From a virus (taxonomy: Duplodnaviria; Caudoviricetes): a stretch of DNA of 40,245 nt. Shown here one piece after another: positions 1,505 to 37,926 of this stretch. The position numbers and the translations under genes were made by a program. The stretch is from positions 1-40,245 of the IMG/VR virus record IMGVR_UViG_3300030372_001081. The stretch is one strand, 5' to 3'. The notes under the pieces are model-generated. The model was not told the origin of the DNA. It did not search any database and worked only from the letters and a program-made list of their open reading frames with translations. How positions within the stretch are numbered: the stretch's first letter is position 1; every line of letters starts with the position of its first letter.

Positions 1505-1689
1505 AACTTAGGCAATCCTGTTGTGGTGGGCATTGAAGGCATTGATTGTTTAACCAATTCAGGGATTTGACCCTTTACCTTATCTAAGATTGTATTCACA
1601 ATCTTATCTTTATTCAAGTATGTAAAAGTTCCACCACCAACTGCTATTACAAGAAAAGCAGTATTTATGTAGGTAAGAATTTTTATCAT
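1501..1689 (-). CDS. Small single-TM membrane protein
   Basis: ATG at 1689 overlaps the upstream TGA; hydrophobic ILTYINTAFLVIAVGGGTF. Confidence 0.75.
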   Translation of the reverse strand: MIKILTYINTAFLVIAVGGGTFTYLNKDKIVNTILDKVKGQIPELVKQSMPSMPTTTGLPKL

Positions 1690-2168: not shown

Positions 2169-5100
2169 CTACCCTGCTTCGAGGGCAGCGACTTTTGTAG
2201 CTAGTTCTTTAATTGCATTCACTAAAACAGGAACCAATCTTTCATATTTCAAACCGTATGCTGTGTCATCTTCGTTGAGATTAACAACAAGCATGTCATC
2301 TTTATTAGTTGGATTACCTTCAATAGCTAATACATCTTGAGCTAAGAATCCAATATGTTTCTTATTACGTTTCTTACTTCCATCTGGTGTGTTGTTATCA
2401 TACCAAGAACGTTTGTCCCAACGATATGTAATAGGGTTTAATTGATTAATCCAATTTAATCCATGAGTAAAGTTGGTAACATCTGTTTTATCCCTAGAGT
2501 CAGAAGACGATATAGATGTATCAGCACAATATAGATTCTGAATATCATTATTACCTAAACAAACAACATTATAATCAGTAGTTAACTGCCCAGAAGGAGA
2601 ATTGGATCTACCAGAATCTTTACCAAGTAATAAATTATTATAACCTGTTGTAAGATCATAACCAGCAGTCCTTCCAACACTAGTGTTGTAATAACCAGTT
2701 GTTGTCTCATATAGTGAATTTAGACCTACAGCAACATTATCATAAGCAGTTGAAGCAGTCCTTAAAGTATCTCTACCAAGAGTAGCATTACCAGCACCAG
2801 TTGTTAAATTAATTCCAGCATAGTGTCCAATTAAAGCATTATCATTTGCTGTAGTTAAAGCACCTCCTGCACTTTTACCAATAGCAGTATTCTGAGATGC
2901 AGTTGTAAGTGCTGATAATGCATTATCACCAATAGCAGTATTATAATTTCCTGTTGTGGCGTGATCTAATGCGTAATAACCTACAGCAGTGTTTTGCTCT
3001 CCTGTTGAATTTGTATATAAAGCAGCTTTACCAATAGCAGTATTACGATCACCAGTTGTATTTGAATATAATGCTTGGTGCCCAAGAGCAGTATTATCTA
3101 TTCCTGTTGTGTTTGCATATAAACCAGATTCACCTATAGCAGTATTATAAGTTCCTGTAGTATTTGTGTACATTGCATTATGACCTAATGCACAGTTATC
3201 TCCACCTGTAGTTGTATTAGCCAAAGCATGTTCACCAACAGCAGTATTATCATTAGCTGTAGTTGCTGATGTTAAAGAATTATGTCCAACAGCAGTATTA
3301 TCACCGCCTGTTGTATTTGCGTCTAATGCATAAGCTCCAACAGCAGTGTTTCTGCTTGCAGTTGTATTCCCACCTAATGCTGATTGACCAAGACCAACGT
3401 TATAATTACCTGTAGTATTTGCGTCTAAAGAATCTTCACCAACAGCAGTGTTAGAAACACCAGTTGTACAAACTAATAAAGAGTCTCTTCCTATAGCTGT
3501 ATTGTAGGTTCCAGTAGTAAGTGCATCTAATGCTTCATATCCAACAGCAGTGTTACTATGACCTGTTGTGTTTGCAGCTAAAGCCTGATACCCTACAGAA
3601 ACGTTTTTCTCTCCTGTGGTGTTACTATATAAAGCTTGACTACCTACAGAAGTATTATAACCACCAGTTGTAGTTGAATATAACGCCCTATCACCTAAAC
3701 CAACATTATAACCACCTGTTGTGTTTGTTTTCAGTGAATCATACCCAATAGCAGTGTTTGGGGTTCCTGTTGTGTTTGCTGCTAATGCACTATAACCAAC
3801 ACCAACGTTATTAGCTGCGGTTGTATTTGCATATAAAGCACCAGTACCTAGCCCAGTATTACTAGCACCTGTTGTGTTTGCAGATAAAGCTTGATGACCT
3901 ACAGCTGTATTGAAATTTGCAGTTGTATTAGCATCTAAACATTCATTACCAACTGCTGTATTACCTGCACCAGTTGAGTGTACTAACATGCAAAGCCTAC
4001 CAACAGCAACGTTATCAGTTCCAGTTGTGTTTGCATTTAAAGCACCAGAACCAACAGCCGTATTCTCAGAACCAGTTGTATTGTTCTTTAAACAATCATT
4101 ACCAACAGCAACATTAGTACTTCCTGTTGTGTTGAGATGTAATGCAGCGTAACCAAATGCAGTATTCCAAGATGCAGTATTAGATCCTAGTGTTCCGTAA
4201 CCTGTAGCAGTATTATAAGAAGCGGTTGTGTTAGCGTCTAAGGAATAAGCACCAACAGCAACGTTACCTGCTCCTGTTGTGTTTGCTTTTAAAGCAAAAT
4301 AACCAACAGCAGTATTGTTGTCTGCTGTCGTATTATCTTGTAAAGCACTGTATCCTAATGCGACATTATAATCTCCAGTAGTGTTGTAATATAAAGAATC
4401 CTGACCAACACCAATATTTCTAATACCTGTAGTGTTGGTTATTAATGTTCTATAACCTACAGCAGTGTTTCCACTTCCTGTTGTGTTTGCTTTTAAAGCA
4501 GCATAACCTGTTGCTGTATTATAAGAAGCTGTAGTGTTATACCTTAAGGCTTGTGCTCCTGTTGCTGTATTCTGTTCTCCTGTAGTGTTTGTAGTTAAAG
4601 CTATATGTCCTAAAGCAGTATTTTCGTTAGCTGTTGTATTAGCGTCTAACGCAAGACTACCTAAAGCTACGTTTTCTGTTCCTGTTGTATTTGCAAATAA
4701 GGCATCTTTACCTACGGCGGTATTATTATTTGCAGTTGTGTTGGAATCTAAGGCGTATGCACCAACAGCAGTGTTAAAACTTCCTGTCGTATTAGAATCT
4801 AAGGCGTAAGCTCCTATTGCAAGGTTTCTATCTCCTGTAGTTATAGCTGTACCTACGTTATATCCAAATAAAGTATTATTAGTTGCATCTGTTCCAGTAA
4901 AACTATCTCCTGCGTTTGTACCAGCAACAGTATTATATTGTGCGTCACTACCTATAGCATCGTTAGCTACATATGCAGCAGCTATTGCTGTTCCTTGCCA
5001 TGTACCTGTACCTATAGTTCCTAATGTTGTGACATTAGTACTACCAGCCCAAGCTGCAAGTTCAGCATCAGTAGTTAAATCTCCAGTAGCTGTTACACCA

Positions 5101-22557: not shown

Positions 22558-22580
22558 TGGATGTGATGGGTGAAAGGTTG

Positions 22581-26291: not shown

Positions 26292-26474
26292 TTACTCGAT
26301 GTTGTTCTGCTCATTATATACAGATCGCAACATTCTTACTAGCTCTACCTGTCCACCGTACCTCCAGATCTCTCGGTCAGGTGTATCTATTGATGGGCAT
26401 CTATCAGGGTAGATCTCTTCTAGTTTCCTAATAAGCACCTCGTCTATTGGAGGCCAAAGATCTTCATCTATCAT
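26292..26474 (-). CDS. Conserved small protein at the gp6.5 position
   Basis: ATG at 26474 overlaps the exonuclease TGA; LIRKLEEIYPDRCP...GQVELVRML. Confidence 0.8.
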   Translation of the reverse strand: MIDEDLWPPIDEVLIRKLEEIYPDRCPSIDTPDREIWRYGGQVELVRMLRSVYNEQNNIE

Positions 26475-32901: not shown

Positions 32902-33154
32902 CTACCAAAGTTAATGAGCGACCACCAGCAGGAGAAGCAGCCTTGCTCCTAATAGCCTGCTGAAGAATACGTTTGCAAAGTTCAGGTCTTGTTGGTGGTG
33001 TTGGCTTGCCATGATGATGGTCATACCTTTCAGCACCAATCTCTTCCCTGATTTCTAATTGTCCTGCGATTGAATCTTGGCGTAGTTGCTCAAGTAATTC
33101 ATTCACATCCTCATCAAGTCTCATGCTGATTTGATTTGGGTCTCTTTTAGCCAT
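32894..33154 (-). CDS. RHH-like DNA-binding protein with a long inter-helix insertion
   Basis: QISMRLDEDVNELLEQL ... TRPELCKRILQQAI. Confidence 0.6.
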   Translation of the reverse strand: MAKRDPNQISMRLDEDVNELLEQLRQDSIAGQLEIREEIGAERYDHHHGKPTPPTRPELCKRILQQAIRSKAASPAGGRSLTLVDG

Positions 33155-33186
33155 GATTGGTTTCGGTTAAGGAACTGTTTTGTAGT

Positions 33187-33237
33187 CGAGGGTTGACACG
33201 CCTGCTCAAGTTTGAGACTCCGCCCTGTTATCCCTCG
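33187..33237 (-). promoter_or_regulatory. Long imperfect stem-loop upstream of the RHH-RHH-RNAP operon
   Basis: CGAGGG (33187-33192) pairs with CCCTCG (33232-33237); inner CTCAA/TTGAG. Confidence 0.45.
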
Positions 33238-33244
33238 TTAGTTT

Positions 33245-33514
33245 TTAAAGAGGTCTTCCTCTCTCATCACATAAGCCAAACTCTTCTTCATCTTCTTTCA
33301 TTCTTTTCTGTGAAAAGTATTCGTGATGATTCAGAAGATGTTGCTCATGTATTTGTTTAAAGAGGTCAAAGATTTCAACCTCTTCGCAAATCATTTCGGC
33401 ATTTGTTTCTCCCTTGTCATCATGGATTACTTTGCTCATATGCCAAAAGCCACGCTCGTCTTGTGAAAGCATGTAATTGGCAAGGATTCGAATCGTGATA
33501 GTTTCTTTTTTCAT
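33245..33514 (-). CDS. Early hypothetical protein
   Basis: 89-aa ORF in the early operon. Confidence 0.7.
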   Translation of the reverse strand: MKKETITIRILANYMLSQDERGFWHMSKVIHDDKGETNAEMICEEVEIFDLFKQIHEQHLLNHHEYFSQKRMKEDEEEFGLCDERGRPL

Positions 33515-33519
33515 GTTGG

Positions 33520-33771
33520 TTAGTAGCTGCTGTAAATAATTTCACGCTCAATCATCCACTGATACTTATCACTGGATGTCTTGCATGTTGGGCATGTAAT
33601 TACCTTGTCTCTCAGGTGGTAAACCTTATGAGTTGCCAAGCAATGACAGCATTTGATGTACTTACCATCAAAGCCAGTGCGTGAGTACTTGTGCATGGGT
33701 TGAAAATATTCAGTTACCACGCACTCACCATCTTTGCAGGTGATCTTTTTAGTTGATTCAGTTGGCCCCAC
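33520..33771 (-). CDS. Zinc-ribbon early protein
   Basis: CCHC...CPTC cysteine pairs. Confidence 0.72.
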   Translation of the reverse strand: MGPTESTKKITCKDGECVVTEYFQPMHKYSRTGFDGKYIKCCHCLATHKVYHLRDKVITCPTCKTSSDKYQWMIEREIIYSSY

Positions 33772-33878
33772 TCGTTATTCCTCTTGGGTTGTTGTACTGC
33801 TGGACTATTAGCCAGCAATAAAAAAAGAACAGCGTAGATACTTAGACCTAACGCTGTCCCGATAGCCTGCCTAATCAT
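33714..33878 (-). CDS. Small membrane protein
   Basis: ATG at 33878; hydrophobic AIGTALGLSIYAVLFLLLA. Confidence 0.55.
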   Translation of the reverse strand: MIRQAIGTALGLSIYAVLFLLLANSPAVQQPKRNNEWGQLNQLKRSPAKMVSAW

Positions 33879-34056
33879 CAAAGTTTTTGATGAACGCTCG
33901 ACCATGCACTGTCTTCTCAGGATGATTGATCTCTTCCTGATGTAGTTCTTCTTTCATTACTTCCTTCATATTGGAAGCAACGTCTTCGACAGAATTAATA
34001 TCTTCCAGCTTGACTTCCTTAGAGGAATCACCGAAAGCGAAAATAATATCTCCCAT
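33871..34056 (-). CDS. Small acidic early protein
   Basis: ATG at 34056 in a TAATG overlap with the upstream small ORF. Confidence 0.65.
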   Translation of the reverse strand: MGDIIFAFGDSSKEVKLEDINSVEDVASNMKEVMKEELHQEEINHPEKTVHGRAFIKNFDD

Positions 34057-34178
34057 TAGAAAAGAACTCCGAGTGTGAATACGACAGCAAGCACAATCCA
34101 TAGACTGTCAAGCTGTTCTTTAACTGGTCTTAACTGCTCTAGTTCAGCAGTTAATGATGCGTTTGTTGGCTTTGCCAC
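34056..34178 (-). CDS. 40-aa C-terminally anchored membrane protein (not in the ORF track)
   Basis: GTG 34178: MAKPTNASLTAELEQLRPVKEQLDSLWIVLAVVFTLGVLF; follows the conserved leader cassette. Confidence 0.7.
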   Translation of the reverse strand: MAKPTNASLTAELEQLRPVKEQLDSLWIVLAVVFTLGVLF

Positions 34179-34192
34179 GATAAATAAATTAA

Positions 34193-34255
34193 ATGGTGGG
34201 ATTTGTGAGGGTGTGAACCCCTCAGTCTGCCCAGTAGTTAGGGCAGAGAGAGAGA
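34193..34255 (-). repeat. Early-gene leader cassette, copy A (CU tract, two hairpins, CCCACCA)
   Basis: TGAGGG/CCCTCA at 34206-34224 and TCTGCCC/GGGCAGA at 34226-34247; near-duplicate of 34551-34610. Confidence 0.85.
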
Positions 34256-34256
34256 A

Positions 34257-34541
34257 TCAAATTCCTAAGTGAAGATAGTCATAGTCACCAGGTTGTTCCG
34301 AACAATCACAAGCCCATGTCCATAAAACTCTGAGTTTGTTTTCTTCATGGTCTTCTAATTGTTCATCTGTCCATGCTCCATATTCTTGTAGATGTTCTTT
34401 GAATAAATCTTTAGGCCCATCAAAATTAAGATGTTTAACCCAGAACTCTACATTTTTAGTAGCGTCACCACTGCCAGAACAATCTGCAATGCACTCGCCA
34501 GGTAACTGTCTAGTGCTATCTCTACCATCAAACCAATTCAT
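34257..34541 (-). CDS. Early hypothetical protein
   Basis: 94-aa ORF flanked by leader cassettes. Confidence 0.8.
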   Translation of the reverse strand: MNWFDGRDSTRQLPGECIADCSGSGDATKNVEFWVKHLNFDGPKDLFKEHLQEYGAWTDEQLEDHEENKLRVLWTWACDCSEQPGDYDYLHLGI

Positions 34542-34550
34542 AGAAATAAA

Positions 34551-34610
34551 GCGGTGGGATTTTGTTGAGGGTGAGTCCCTCAGTCTGTCCCGTAGGACAG
34601 AGAGAGAGAG
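34551..34610 (-). repeat. Early-gene leader cassette, copy B
   Basis: TGAGGG/CCCTCA at 34566-34582; UCUGUCC-UACG-GGACAGA hairpin at 34584-34601. Confidence 0.85.
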
Positions 34611-34847
34611 TCAACCGATGGCAACTATATCTTTGATACATGATTCCATTTCAGCCTTGTTTATCTTTGGATCGTCCCATCTGTAACCCTCGCCTGTTGT
34701 TGTTCTTTTAGTGCCGTTAATCTGGTACTCAACAAAAGCTTTAAAGTTACCGATGTTCTTAGCGTCCTGATAAAACTGTTGGTCGTTGCCAATAGTTAAA
34801 GCTGCTGACCATGTTTCACGATTAGACCATCCATTACATTCACTCAT
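34611..34847 (-). CDS. Early protein with NGWxNxETW motif
   Basis: NGWSNRETWSAALTIGND resembles a common phage early-protein motif. Confidence 0.8.
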   Translation of the reverse strand: MSECNGWSNRETWSAALTIGNDQQFYQDAKNIGNFKAFVEYQINGTKRTTTGEGYRWDDPKINKAEMESCIKDIVAIG

Positions 34848-34862
34848 TTTTTAGACCTCTTT

Positions 34863-34916
34863 GTGGTGGGCTTCCCTCAGTTGAGGGAATGACTAGACCA
34901 GGGTTTGCACCTGGTC
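34863..34916 (-). promoter_or_regulatory. Early-gene leader cassette, divergent copy C (two hairpins and CCCACCAC)
   Basis: TTCCCTC/GAGGGAA at 34872-34889; GACCAGG/CCTGGTC at 34896-34916. Confidence 0.7.
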
Positions 34917-34931
34917 AACCGCTTGAACGGA

Positions 34932-35366
34932 TTAATCAAAGAATCTGGAAGTCTTAGGAATATCAACCACTGTTGGAGCCTTTGGAATGTTCCAATCGTA
35001 GTCAAACTCTGCCTTGTAACACTTCCATTCTTTTAGATCAGTGTTCCAAAGATAAGAATATTCAATCTGAATTGGATCGTAGAAAATGTAATCATTTAGA
35101 TCTTCATGTTCTTGAGCCATTGTCTTCTCACCTCTTTGGTTGAAAGTTCTAATGATTGGTTCTTCAACTTCTTTCATGTTCCAATCTGTCTTTGAGTGGA
35201 TACATGAAATGTCGCCTAACTCCATTAGTTCCCTCACCTTAGAAGTGTCTGAATAGTTCCTCTTTAGAAAGACTCCTAACCATTCTGGGTATCCATCCGA
35301 GTGATGATATACAGACTCAATAGATTCATCTTGGTTAAGGATTCCGATCCGTGAACGAGTAGACAT
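34932..35366 (-). CDS. First early gene; protein with MSTRSRIG...HxDGYP motif
   Basis: 144-aa ORF; SVYHHSDGYPEWLG motif. Confidence 0.85.
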   Translation of the reverse strand: MSTRSRIGILNQDESIESVYHHSDGYPEWLGVFLKRNYSDTSKVRELMELGDISCIHSKTDWNMKEVEEPIIRTFNQRGEKTMAQEHEDLNDYIFYDPIQIEYSYLWNTDLKEWKCYKAEFDYDWNIPKAPTVVDIPKTSRFFD

Positions 35367-35393
35367 AAACCTAATGTGGTGGGTTCATTAATC

Positions 35394-35421
35394 ACTATAT
35401 CACAATCCATTGTTTTTTCAA
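35394..35421 (-). promoter_or_regulatory. Host sigma70-type early promoter
   Basis: TTGAAA-16 nt-TATAGT with extended TGn; overlapped by the palindrome CCATTG-N6-CAATGG. Confidence 0.75.
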
Positions 35422-35520
35422 TGGTTATTGATTAGTAAGTAAGTATTTGATTCTCTGCGGTAACAAACTAAAAGACTTGAATAGATCTAAAAAACTGCTT
35501 ATAAATCGACCTGATAGCCT

Positions 35521-35549
35521 TGCATAACTGCTTCACACACAGTTATGCA
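35521..35549. repeat. Perfect 10-bp inverted repeat
   Basis: TGCATAACTG-N9-CAGTTATGCA. Confidence 0.8.
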
Positions 35550-35673
35550 GCCTAGTCGTACCAATGGATTAGACCCCCTGCCCCCTTATTTGGACAGAAT
35601 TTGGACACCAATGGGGGGTGATCGACTCACTCCCTACTACACGTTAACCCCTCACATTTTCTGGGTAAAAAAG

Positions 35674-35786
35674 TGATCTGTGGGGATCTAACAGATATCT
35701 TATAGGGGGGGGGATCTAGTGGGATCTTATAGGGGGACTTATAGGAATCTAATAGGGGGGATCTGAGTGGATCTTATAGGGGTGAT
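35674..35786. repeat. G-rich short-repeat array, probably adjacent to the genome terminus
   Basis: GGATCT x5, CTTATAGG x4, G-runs up to 9 nt. Confidence 0.8.
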
Positions 35787-35819
35787 AAGGAAGATATTCT
35801 ATTCATATATGGACAGTTA

Positions 35820-35848
35820 GTGATAGCAAGGGATTTGAGGGGTAGAAT
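35820..35848 (+). promoter_or_regulatory. Putative sigma70-type promoter for the plus-strand RNA / terminase operon
   Basis: GTGATA-17 nt-TAGAAT; predicted start about 35855, at the base of a hairpin. Confidence 0.5.
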
Positions 35849-35854
35849 TTAGGG

Positions 35855-35915
35855 GGTTAGCTTAGTCTGCCAGTGAGCTAACAAGGGGGCTTTCCTGTGG
35901 TGGGTGAAGCCCCCG
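35855..35915 (+). ncRNA. Candidate two-hairpin small RNA or structured 5' leader of terS
   Basis: Stems GTTAGCT/AGCTAAC (35856-35882) and GGGGGCTT/AAGCCCCC (35885-35914); apical regions complementary to early leaders. Confidence 0.4.
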
Positions 35916-35954
35916 CTAATATTTGTGTATGATTAGGGAAGTTATTGAAAAGTT

Positions 35955-36191
35955 ATGGCTAGGAAGAGTACGACAGAGGTATTAGGGGATTTACATGCGG
36001 GATTAGCGGAGTGGTTTATGGATAAGTTGGTATCTGGTGAGATGACTGTTGCGGATGTGAATGTCGCTAGACAGTTTTTGAAGGATAATCAGATCAGTGC
36101 ACAGCCAGTAGAGGGTACAGCGTTTGGGGAGTTAGCGAAACAGTTACCTGATATAGAGAATGTCGTAGCATTTAAGAAGAAGAGGGCGTGA
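35955..36191 (+). CDS. terS: Terminase small subunit (gp18-like)
   Basis: LGDLH...ADVNVARQFLKDNQI; directly upstream of terL. Confidence 0.9.
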   Translation: MARKSTTEVLGDLHAGLAEWFMDKLVSGEMTVADVNVARQFLKDNQISAQPVEGTAFGELAKQLPDIENVVAFKKKRA

Positions 36192-36195
36192 GTAA

Positions 36196-37926
36196 GTGAA
36201 AGAAAAGTGGGTGCAGCTACCTGAACAGTTCAGGGATGACTTTAGATATTTTTTAGTTGTCGTATGGAAGCACCTTCAACTTCCTAATCCGACTCCAGTT
36301 CAGTTAGATATAGCTGAATATATGCAGGATGGGCCTAAGAGAAGAATTATTGAGGCTTTTCGTGGAGTAGGAAAGAGTTGGATGGCAGCAGCTTATGTGT
36401 TGTGGCTGTTAAGAAATGATCCACAGAAGAAGATCATGGTTGTATCTGCAAGCAAGATGCGAGCAGATGACTTTGCACAGTTTTGTTTAAGGTTAATTAG
36501 AGAGATGGATATATTGAAGTGCTTAGAACCAGATAGGGATGAGCAAAGAAGTGCAAGTAATAGATTTGATGTAAGACCAGCGACACCAGATCAGTCTCCA
36601 TCAGTTAAGTCTGTTGGTATATTTGGACAGCTTACTGGTAGCCGTGCTGACCTGATATTAGCCGATGACTGTGAGGTTCCTAATACAGCTTGGACTGTAG
36701 GAATGAGAGAGAAGTTGATTGTATCTGTCGGAGAATTTAATGCAATCCTGAAACCAGGGGGAGAAATTATGTTCCTGGGTACGCCTCAGACGGAAGAAAG
36801 TATTTATAACAAGCTACAAACAAAAGGATATGAATGTCGTATCTGGCCTGCAAGGTATCCAAAGAAACCACAGAAGTACGGTGCATCTCTAGCACCCATT
36901 ATAAGTGAGAATTGTGTCGATCTTGTTAATAAACCAACTGACCCTGATCGCTTTAATGAACTAGATCTAATTGAAAGAGAAGCTAGTTATGGTAAGTCGC
37001 AATTCACACTTCAGTTTCAACTAGATACGACACTCAGTGATCTAAATCGTTTTCCTCTTAGATTATCTGACTTAGTAGTTTTAGAAGTTGACCAAGACGC
37101 ACCTGAAAAAGTGGTGTGGTCTTCTGGTGCTGAGTATCGGATTACTGACCTGCCTGCTGTTGGGTTTAGTGGAGATTATTATCACAGGCCAGCGTTTATA
37201 CATGGGCAGTGGATTGAGTTCCAAGGATGTGTAATGTTTATAGATCCTTCAGGTAAAGGTTTAGATGAGACTGCTTATTCTATTGTCGCTCATCTCAATG
37301 GAAATTTATTTGTACTGGAGGTGGGATCTTTTAGAGAAGGATATACAGAGCCTGTCTTAAGAGGAATTGCAGAAGCAGCTAAACGTAGAAAAGTAAAACT
37401 GATTCTCTTGGAAGATCAATTTGGTCAAGGCATGATGGAAAATCTATTGCAGCCTTACCTCAGAGAGGTTTACCCCTGCACGATTGAAGCGACTAGGAGC
37501 AACGTCCAAAAGGAAAGAAGAATTATTAATGCTCTTGAACCAGTGATGAATCAACATCGGTTGATCTTTAATCGCTCGGTAATTGAAGATGATTCCAAAG
37601 CTAGAGATGATGATTCCGTAGAGACAGCCTTGGCATACCAGTTGTTTCATCAATTAACTCATCTCACTGTCGATAAACAATCTTTACAGCATGATGACAG
37701 ATTAGACTCGTTAGCTGGTGCAGTTCAGTATTGGAACGAGTCTCTTGCTATAGATGAAGATAGAGCTATTAAAGAACGTGAACAAGAACTCTGGGAGTTG
37801 GAATTGGCAGCGTATAAAGGTGATATTGAGGGCCTTCTCGATGCACAAATACTTGGTGTCCCAATCGAAAAAGTCCAAAGACAAAACGCAAAAAGTGGAT
37901 GGATCAAGACCCATGGGAACCACTGA
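36196..37926 (+). CDS. terL: Terminase large subunit (gp19-like)
   Basis: AFRGVGKSW, QLTGSRADLILADD, LGTPQ, IDPSGKGLDET, HDDRLDSLA. Confidence 0.97.
   Translation: MKEKWVQLPEQFRDDFRYFLVVVWKHLQLPNPTPVQLDIAEYMQDGPKRRIIEAFRGVGKSWMAAAYVLWLLRNDPQKKIMVVSASKMRADDFAQFCLRLIREMDILKCLEPDRDEQRSASNRFDVRPATPDQSPSVKSVGIFGQLTGSRADLILADDCEVPNTAWTVGMREKLIVSVGEFNAILKPGGEIMFLGTPQTEESIYNKLQTKGYECRIWPARYPKKPQKYGASLAPIISENCVDLVNKPTDPDRFNELDLIEREASYGKSQFTLQFQLDTTLSDLNRFPLRLSDLVVLEVDQDAPEKVVWSSGAEYRITDLPAVGFSGDYYHRPAFIHGQWIEFQGCVMFIDPSGKGLDETAYSIVAHLNGNLFVLEVGSFREGYTEPVLRGIAEAAKRRKVKLILLEDQFGQGMMENLLQPYLREVYPCTIEATRSNVQKERRIINALEPVMNQHRLIFNRSVIEDDSKARDDDSVETALAYQLFHQLTHLTVDKQSLQHDDRLDSLAGAVQYWNESLAIDEDRAIKEREQELWELELAAYKGDIEGLLDAQILGVPIEKVQRQNAKSGWIKTHGNH

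Follow-up and report, generated by a model that had tools for sequence, protein, structure and literature searches.

The stretch of DNA under analysis (the window, 40,245 nucleotides) is a complete, circularly permuted record of 40.2 kb. Protein profile matches placed an RNA polymerase, an SSB, an endonuclease, a primase/helicase, an exonuclease, a portal and a capsid protein on its minus strand, and no match to a DNA polymerase was obtained among the window proteins scanned, including those encoded between helicase and portal. The RNA polymerase shares 53% identity with that of cultured P-SCSP1 phages and at most 31% with those of the other phages listed. Judged by its genes, the virus is a P-SCSP1-like, T7-like cyanopodovirus, with the T7-like gene order and the missing polymerase expected of an MPP-C member, and its host is presumably a cyanobacterium. 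In the available text of Cai et al. (PMC9860041), the P-SCSP1 phages make up the MPP-C clade.

As in P-SCSP1n, the terminase genes terS and terL stand in inverted orientation, divergent from the early genes, and the 590-bp gap between the two groups contains a two-hairpin unit (Table 1). The original prediction had placed a small plus-strand RNA here, and both of its hairpins fold as claimed. No function could be assigned to the first early gene products by a PHROG/Pfam scan.

Table 1. Positions, strands and properties of the features discussed (duplex energies with hairpin 2 in kcal/mol)
Feature	Position	Strand	Remarks
Predicted host sigma-70 promoter of the sRNA	35820..35848	+	-35 at 35820-35825, weak; -10 TAGAAT at 35843-35848
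Hairpin 1	35856..35882	+	Folds; stem position conserved, loop variable
Hairpin 2 (seed hairpin)	35885..35914	+	Seed GUGGUGGG at 35897-35904; apical loop GUGGU
Second -10-like hexamer, TATGAT	35928..35933	+	Candidate separate terS promoter, suggested by its sequence
terS, terminase small subunit	35955..36191	+	phrog_891, E 4e-17; inverted relative to the other genes
terL, terminase large subunit	36196..37926	+	72% DNA identity to P-SCSP1 terL
Predicted early sigma-70 promoter	35394..35421	-	TTGAAA-16-TATAGT, extended -10, 10/12
Tag 1, CCCACCAC	35376..35383	-	9 nt before ATG of early gene 34932-35366; duplex -18.8
Tag 2, CCCACCAC	34863..34870	-	15 nt before ATG of early gene 34611-34847; duplex -19.3
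Tag 3, CCCACCGC	34551..34558	-	In cassette B; one U·G; 9 nt before ATG of early gene 34257-34541; duplex -15.9
Tag 4, CCCACCAU	34193..34200	-	In cassette A; one G·U; 14 nt before GTG of early gene 34056-34178; duplex -14.3
Cassette A	34186..34259	-	Long self-covarying stem upstream of tag 4
Cassette B	34544..34616	-	Paralogue of cassette A, upstream of tag 3
Perfect 9-mer, last exonuclease codons	26474..26482	-	At the start of the next gene; duplex -20.3
Perfect 9-mer in coding sequence	1522..1530	-	About 18 nt before gene 983-1504; duplex -21.0

Hairpin 2, its tags and their coupled change

The stem of hairpin 2 covaries around a near-fixed GUGGUGGG tip. In an alignment of 14 hand-picked sequences, 97.5% of the cells were paired and two-sided changes occurred at 8 of the 12 pairs; the covariation score of 0.605 was reached by none of 500 shuffles, and slid controls also fell below it. 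The predicted opening cost is 0.1 kcal/mol for the apical loop and 4.7 kcal/mol for the whole seed. To assess conservation, relatives of terS were drawn from collections of viruses, metagenomes and genomes and collapsed by their last 150 upstream bases to 208 non-redundant loci with at least 175 nt upstream of terS; eight fetched loci, and earlier another six (three of them annotated records), were left out because terS could not be placed. The seed or a one-base variant was found in 165 of the 208 regions, including that of P-SCSP1n (142 GTGGTGGG, 17 GTAGTGGG, 4 GTGGCGGG, 1 TTGGTGGG and 1 ATGGTGGG), and 43 were without it. P-SCSP2 and P-SSP7, in which the terminase is co-oriented, have neither the seed nor its complements.

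These complements, here called tags, read on the early mRNA strand as CCCACCAC or as a variant that still pairs with one G·U, and each of the first four early genes is preceded by one. Tag 1 sits just past the predicted early transcription start, and tag 2 is followed immediately by an SD-like AAAGAGG. The original prediction had listed complementarity to hairpin 2 at 35375, 34862, 26474 and 1522 and had overlooked the targets inside cassettes A and B. All four sites exist, but the last two are coding sequence (Pro-Thr-Thr codons) that overlaps the initiation region of the next gene and not free leaders. Of 21 related exonuclease ends just two retain the site at 26474, a possible lineage-restricted target; 1522 could be an extra one, its gene 983-1504 being present in one of 22 genomes searched, with the site retained there. 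The 9-mer TGTGGTGGG occurs six times in the window, always on the plus strand and never on the minus strand (reversed control 0), against an expectation of 0.06-0.27 copies under Markov models of order 1-4; the sixth copy lies at 689, within a gene.

When the 45 initiation regions of the window were ranked by duplex energy, the first four early genes all came within the top 9 (-14 to -19 kcal/mol). In P-SCSP1n, two early leaders at -19.2 were the top 2 of 12 tested, the other ten being at -10.7 or weaker. The tags are single-stranded and A/C-rich, with an opening cost of 0.7-3.8 kcal/mol; they mostly lie 6-16 nt from the start codon, and the pairing reaches the SD in several phages. Within 3 kb upstream of the seed loci, CCCACCAC was found 220 times in the early sense, 14 times on the opposite strand and 30 times reversed; 203 of the early-sense copies are near a start, which is a weak control since 24 of the 30 reversed and 9 of the 14 opposite-strand matches are near one too.

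Good scores also went to the scaffold gene and two other non-early genes, and gene 983-1504 is one of the late or middle genes with such a score; a shut-off of early genes alone is therefore a less clear-cut reading, and the regulon may not be purely early. In the scaffold leader (22558-22575, minus strand), CCCATCAC precedes the ATG; about 7 of 18 relatives have it or CCCACC close to the scaffold start, and the three GUAG or seedless genomes examined have neither there. This leader is a possible late target.

Covariation of seed and targets, a check named in the original prediction, was analysed in loci with at least 1.7 kb upstream and supports the hairpin-2 part of that prediction. Three lineages were found to covary (seed/tag GUAG/CCACUAC, GGCG/CCCGCCAC and UUGG/CCCACCAA), with joint loss in a fourth. 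Before start codons, 60 low-GC GUGG loci have 90 CCACCAC and 8 CCACUAC sites, whereas the leaders of 14 GUAG loci have 0 and 14, respectively. Two genes of the four GGCG loci have CCCGCCAC in leaders where the same genes of sister phages have CCCACCAC; the UUGG locus (L223) has two CCCACCAA tags, and in the 19 low-GC loci without a seed CCACCAC sites are missing altogether. A terL tree, built by a quick method from the 87 rows that had sufficient terL, which leaves out L220 and L223, places the GUAG change, the GGCG change and the main loss on separate branches, the loss being nested in the GUAG clade. The sister of that clade (support 87) is the P-SCSP1 group, in which G·U intermediates are present. 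Such G·U-compatible intermediates are found under the GUGG seed, and the non-pairing reverse was never seen in GUAG loci, a direction of change consistent with pairing between RNAs. Among single-mismatch tags, 61 of 71 near starts were wobble-compatible, compared with 13 of 32 elsewhere.

As the sites share descent, these counts boil down to some three independent changes plus one or two losses, and Fisher p-values overstate the support. There are also exceptions. One leader of the GGCG phages stays ACCACCAC, mismatched; L220, with the seed AUGGUGGG, has CCCACCAA tags with a mismatch at position 8; and the seedless L108 and L173 keep an UCCACUAC leader. No tag was found on the opposite strand in the scanned 3 kb of 13 of 123 seed loci, and inversion explains five of these but not the other eight. 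Even so, compensatory seed-target change, a criterion by which trans-acting base-pairing sRNAs are recognized, is observed here in nature.

In six relatives (L134, L291, L293, L383, L384 and L388) an early block is inverted, the tags are on the mRNA strand and the seed has not moved. Since the tags follow the inverted genes onto the terS-sense strand, it is the complementarity to the message that is conserved and not an orientation in the DNA. In L286, of the same clade, part of the early region is likewise inverted to the terS strand, tags included.

The predicted RNA unit, its strand and hairpin 1

It had been proposed that the RNA is transcribed from a GTGATA-17-TAGAAT promoter. Such a site is present with 9/12 consensus positions and would start a plus-strand RNA at about 35855; taken alone, however, it does not exceed chance, three promoter-like sites being found in the window against 7.4 in shuffles. 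Its -10 (a TAnnnT hexamer) is conserved in relatives at a lineage-constant distance from the seed, but the -35 is not. The unit is probably more than a mere terS leader, because 73 of 99 low-GC loci have a second -10-like hexamer in the interval from hairpin 2 to terS, a count without chance control.

In many high-GC relatives all that is left of the unit is a -10 hexamer, a short seed hairpin 10-12 nt further on and then a GC-rich, terminator-like hairpin, in some of them with a U-run; hairpin 1 is absent from these short versions. As far as sequence can tell, this reduced form is the anatomy of a stand-alone sRNA. Several properties count against the sRNA reading: the promoter match of the window is weak, its hairpin 2 is without a U-tract, and the seed is only 8-10 nt long, with its GGG half base-paired in the model of the fold. 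A TTTT was seen after the seed in no more than 25 of 99 low-GC and 25 of 68 high-GC loci. Contigs assembled from RNA runs (Logan, unstranded) cover non-coding repeats and genes alike and carry no information on strand or level.

The plus strand, to which the RNA had been assigned from the start, is favoured by the G·U/A·C asymmetry of the stems, by fold stability and by the wobble bias of the tags. Read on this strand, 62 stems hold 81 G·U pairs, no A·C and 77 other non-pairs, the stem registers having been picked on Watson-Crick pairs alone; 37 segments had no ungapped stem. The plus fold was more stable than the minus fold in 73 of 73 segments, which is partly expected, as a G-rich strand folds better anyway.

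Hairpin 1 was originally regarded as a second seed, directed at cassettes A and B. The complementarity is as described, CTTAGTCTGCC (35861-35871) pairing with cassette A with one G·U and with cassette B with one G·U and one mismatch, but a role as a seed for these cassettes is rejected: the loop does not covary with the cassettes or the early region (own-versus-cross permutation p = 0.34, 28 loci), and the target is buried, as it forms the 3' arm of a covarying stem within the cassette, which would take about 20 kcal/mol to open. Covarying stems (34186-34259, 34544-34616 and 34871-34925) lie directly upstream of three tags and are reshuffled between relatives, much as PeSL cassettes are; they are possible RNase III/processing sites or 5' stabilisers.

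The Yfr1/Yfr10 motif ACUCCUCACAC, taken from the available text of PMC2518516, is absent from the unit of the window. It was found exactly (ACTCCTCACAC, terS strand) in the hairpin-1 loop of three relatives (L101, L180 and L176, there at about 4930-4950) and in degenerate form in ten more loci; it is in the GUAG clade that the loop carries this motif. From the motif, hairpin 1 of these phages could be a mimic of the host sRNA or a sponge for Yfr2, and the comparison suggests that hairpin 1 is an exchangeable accessory module, possibly host-directed. In L074, L197 and L227 the hairpin-1 loop contains CCCATCAC, a wobble match to the seed, so that an intramolecular loop-loop contact or self-inhibition is possible there.

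Proposed function and competing explanations

The structure of hairpin 2, its complementarity to the leaders, the position of the tags, the coupling of seed and tags and the strand bias are all observed, and a probability of roughly 0.7 is given to the reading that hairpin 2 is the seed of an antisense sRNA acting in trans on several targets, the early leaders of the phage itself. The host sigma-70 polymerase would make a plus-strand RNA of a predicted 60-70 nt. Its exposed GUGGU loop would nucleate on a single-stranded tag, after which the short inner stem would open and 8-14 bp would form across the 30S footprint, often into the SD; 30S loading would then be blocked and the early cluster shut down post-transcriptionally. 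Repression is preferred to activation because of the tag position. The inverted packaging operon is apparently dependent on host polymerase, so that the early promoter would still be usable late and a shut-off would be needed; an early-to-late switch, as first suggested for this locus, is what we infer. Late timing would follow from an RNA gene at the genome end that enters the cell last, since the T7-type order puts the early genes at the left end (PMC7885011, available text).

In T7-like phages, the textbook account of timing rests on DNA entry and on proteins that disable the host RNA polymerase. A phage that infects a phototroph has a motive for leaving host transcription on, and its early genes would then have to be turned off in some other way. 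The sRNA, if real, would be a concrete RNA-based answer to this in MPP-C phages, which are reported to account for almost half of the cyanopodovirus reads in surface oceans (PMC9860041, in the part available), and its natural seed variants would be ready-made orthogonal RNA-tag pairs. A wider reading, which we hold tentatively and at slightly less than even odds, is that one lineage of T7-like cyanophages, abundant in the sea and in fresh water, shuts its early genes off with one sRNA, that early genes enter the regulon through an 8-nt leader tag, that the RNA gene at the last-injected end serves as a timer, and that the neighbouring hairpin is swappable and, in one clade, a Yfr1 mimic.

Among phage antisense RNAs, c4 of P1/P7 and the CI RNA of P4 are grouped together, and in both two separate seeds pair with paired target sites. 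Hairpin 2 has in common with them a loop-displayed complement to the phage's own RBS region that is encoded apart from it. A second seed was not supported, the hairpin-1 loop giving p = 0.34 against the early region, and no immunity-region and antirepressor context was seen, the unit lying upstream of terS and its targets being early genes. According to the available part of PMC12197685, c4 is likewise a phage RNA that acts in trans on its own message by a short loop-displayed complementarity at the RBS; however, it controls one antirepressor operon in temperate phages, whereas the 8-nt seed here matches several separate early leaders. CfrI, an antisense RNA of the T4-like cyanophage S-PM2 treated in the same text, differs in being cis-encoded, about 225 nt long and confined to one locus, psbA. 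Yfr1/Yfr10 of cyanobacteria is also a short two-hairpin sRNA with one highly conserved exposed seed that represses by covering the RBS (PMC2518516 and PMC2796815, as far as accessible), but the seed differs, and the RNA proposed here is encoded by a phage and would act on the leaders of that phage. The PeSL cassettes of T4-type phages resemble cassettes A and B as small repeated cassettes between variable early genes; they are promoter-terminator cassettes for modular shuffling, and a distal antisense partner is not mentioned in the accessible portion of PMC2839356.

Rfam covariance models gave no gathering match in the whole window, only two unrelated sub-threshold matches in 33000-36200 and none in L176. 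No description of the hairpin-2 element was found in the literature searched, which was mostly that readable without subscription; three supplementary files of PMC10690425, on 10,000 candidate viral RNAs, held no seed match, and the motif may be catalogued in its other files. By analogy, the hairpin-2 RNA likely works like c4 of P1/P7 and Yfr1 but belongs to neither.

The same RNA and the same pairing could instead have superinfection exclusion as their main job: RNA built up in an infected cell would silence the early leaders of a related phage that enters later, and the seed variants would define immunity groups. The seed is near-invariant (142 of 165 identical) across marine and high-GC lineages, the latent periods of MPP-C phages are long, at 12-15 h (PMC9860041, available text), and c4 underlies the heteroimmunity of P1/P7 (PMC12197685, same limitation). 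Coupling with the phage's own tags, however, needs self-targeting only, and no integrase was found among the PHROG/Pfam matches of the window proteins scanned, which are a part of its open reading frames. Exclusion as the main job is thought unlikely, and it is compatible with the shut-off of early genes.

The original prediction had also offered a decoy or protein site on the other strand. In the version considered here, CCCACCAC would be bound by a phage or host protein as RNA or DNA, and the hairpin would be a minus-strand decoy or operator. A change in protein specificity could enforce the coupled change too, the single-stranded, A/C-rich tags would suit such a protein, and seed and tags are same-strand DNA repeats in most genomes, although in the L134 clade that orientation is reversed. 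Read on the minus strand, each of the 81 G·U pairs becomes an A·C mismatch and none of the stems has a G·U, the promoter-like and terminator-like elements face the plus strand, and the tags tend to vary in ways that leave G·U pairing possible; a protein fit for this part did not turn up, short of a systematic search. This alternative is disfavoured on these grounds and considered quite unlikely.

An RNA that pairs with the tags to activate, stabilise or guide the processing of the messages appears improbable. The tags do lie just 3' of stable stems, and an antisense RNA reportedly protects mRNA from RNase E in Prochlorococcus phage infection, as the title of a paper has it (PMC3113571), which favours such a role. 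The tags are nevertheless accessible and outside any RBS-hiding stem, and they fall inside the 30S footprint, with pairing that extends into the SD in several phages; Yfr1, in the same host, represses by RBS sequestration (PMC2796815, available text).

That the hairpins are a cis element of the terS leader (a terminator, attenuator or stability stem) and resemble the complement of the early leaders incidentally is very improbable: they are always directly upstream of terS, and a second promoter is not evident in some lineages (it was seen in 34 of 68 high-GC loci), but the coupled seed/tag changes and the joint loss would go unexplained. The tag was also rejected as a phage-polymerase promoter, its copies sharing only about 8 nt, and as a polar DNA signal of the Chi type, to which we take it to bear some likeness, since the start-codon position and the L134 flip are left unexplained.

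Neighbouring motifs and other relatives

Further motifs lie in the gap beyond the hairpin unit. A strongly conserved CTGTCCA-containing motif (35802-35816, minus strand), single-copy per genome, points into short repeats, and no close copy was found elsewhere on the main transcription strand of the window or of P-SCSP1n, the best having three mismatches. It resembles the core of T7/SP6-type promoters. A similar motif follows terL in P-SCSP2, and for that reason the motif is a candidate right-end packaging promoter. The repeats themselves (35681-35782) are four imperfect copies of 28 nt that end in ATCTGTT (35690-35696, minus strand), the core of T7 class II pause sites. This suggests a concatemer junction at this place, but ATCTGTT is absent from the corresponding strand in P-SCSP1n. 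At 35646-35660 (minus strand) lies AAAATGTGAGGGGTT, a candidate for a genome-end or terminase site; 7 of the 15 loci compared have it, at 180-470 nt upstream of terS, and P-SCSP2 has a similar sequence.

Phages of this lineage were also found as contigs inside MAGs labelled as non-cyanobacteria (L328, L329 and L330), where they are probably mis-binned. In two high-GC relatives, an extra terS-strand gene lies just upstream of the sRNA (L127, 4393-4878; L139, 2980-3357); the L127 protein has a sub-threshold winged-helix match (PF13412, E 0.006), and the inserted gene possibly encodes a replication or regulatory protein.
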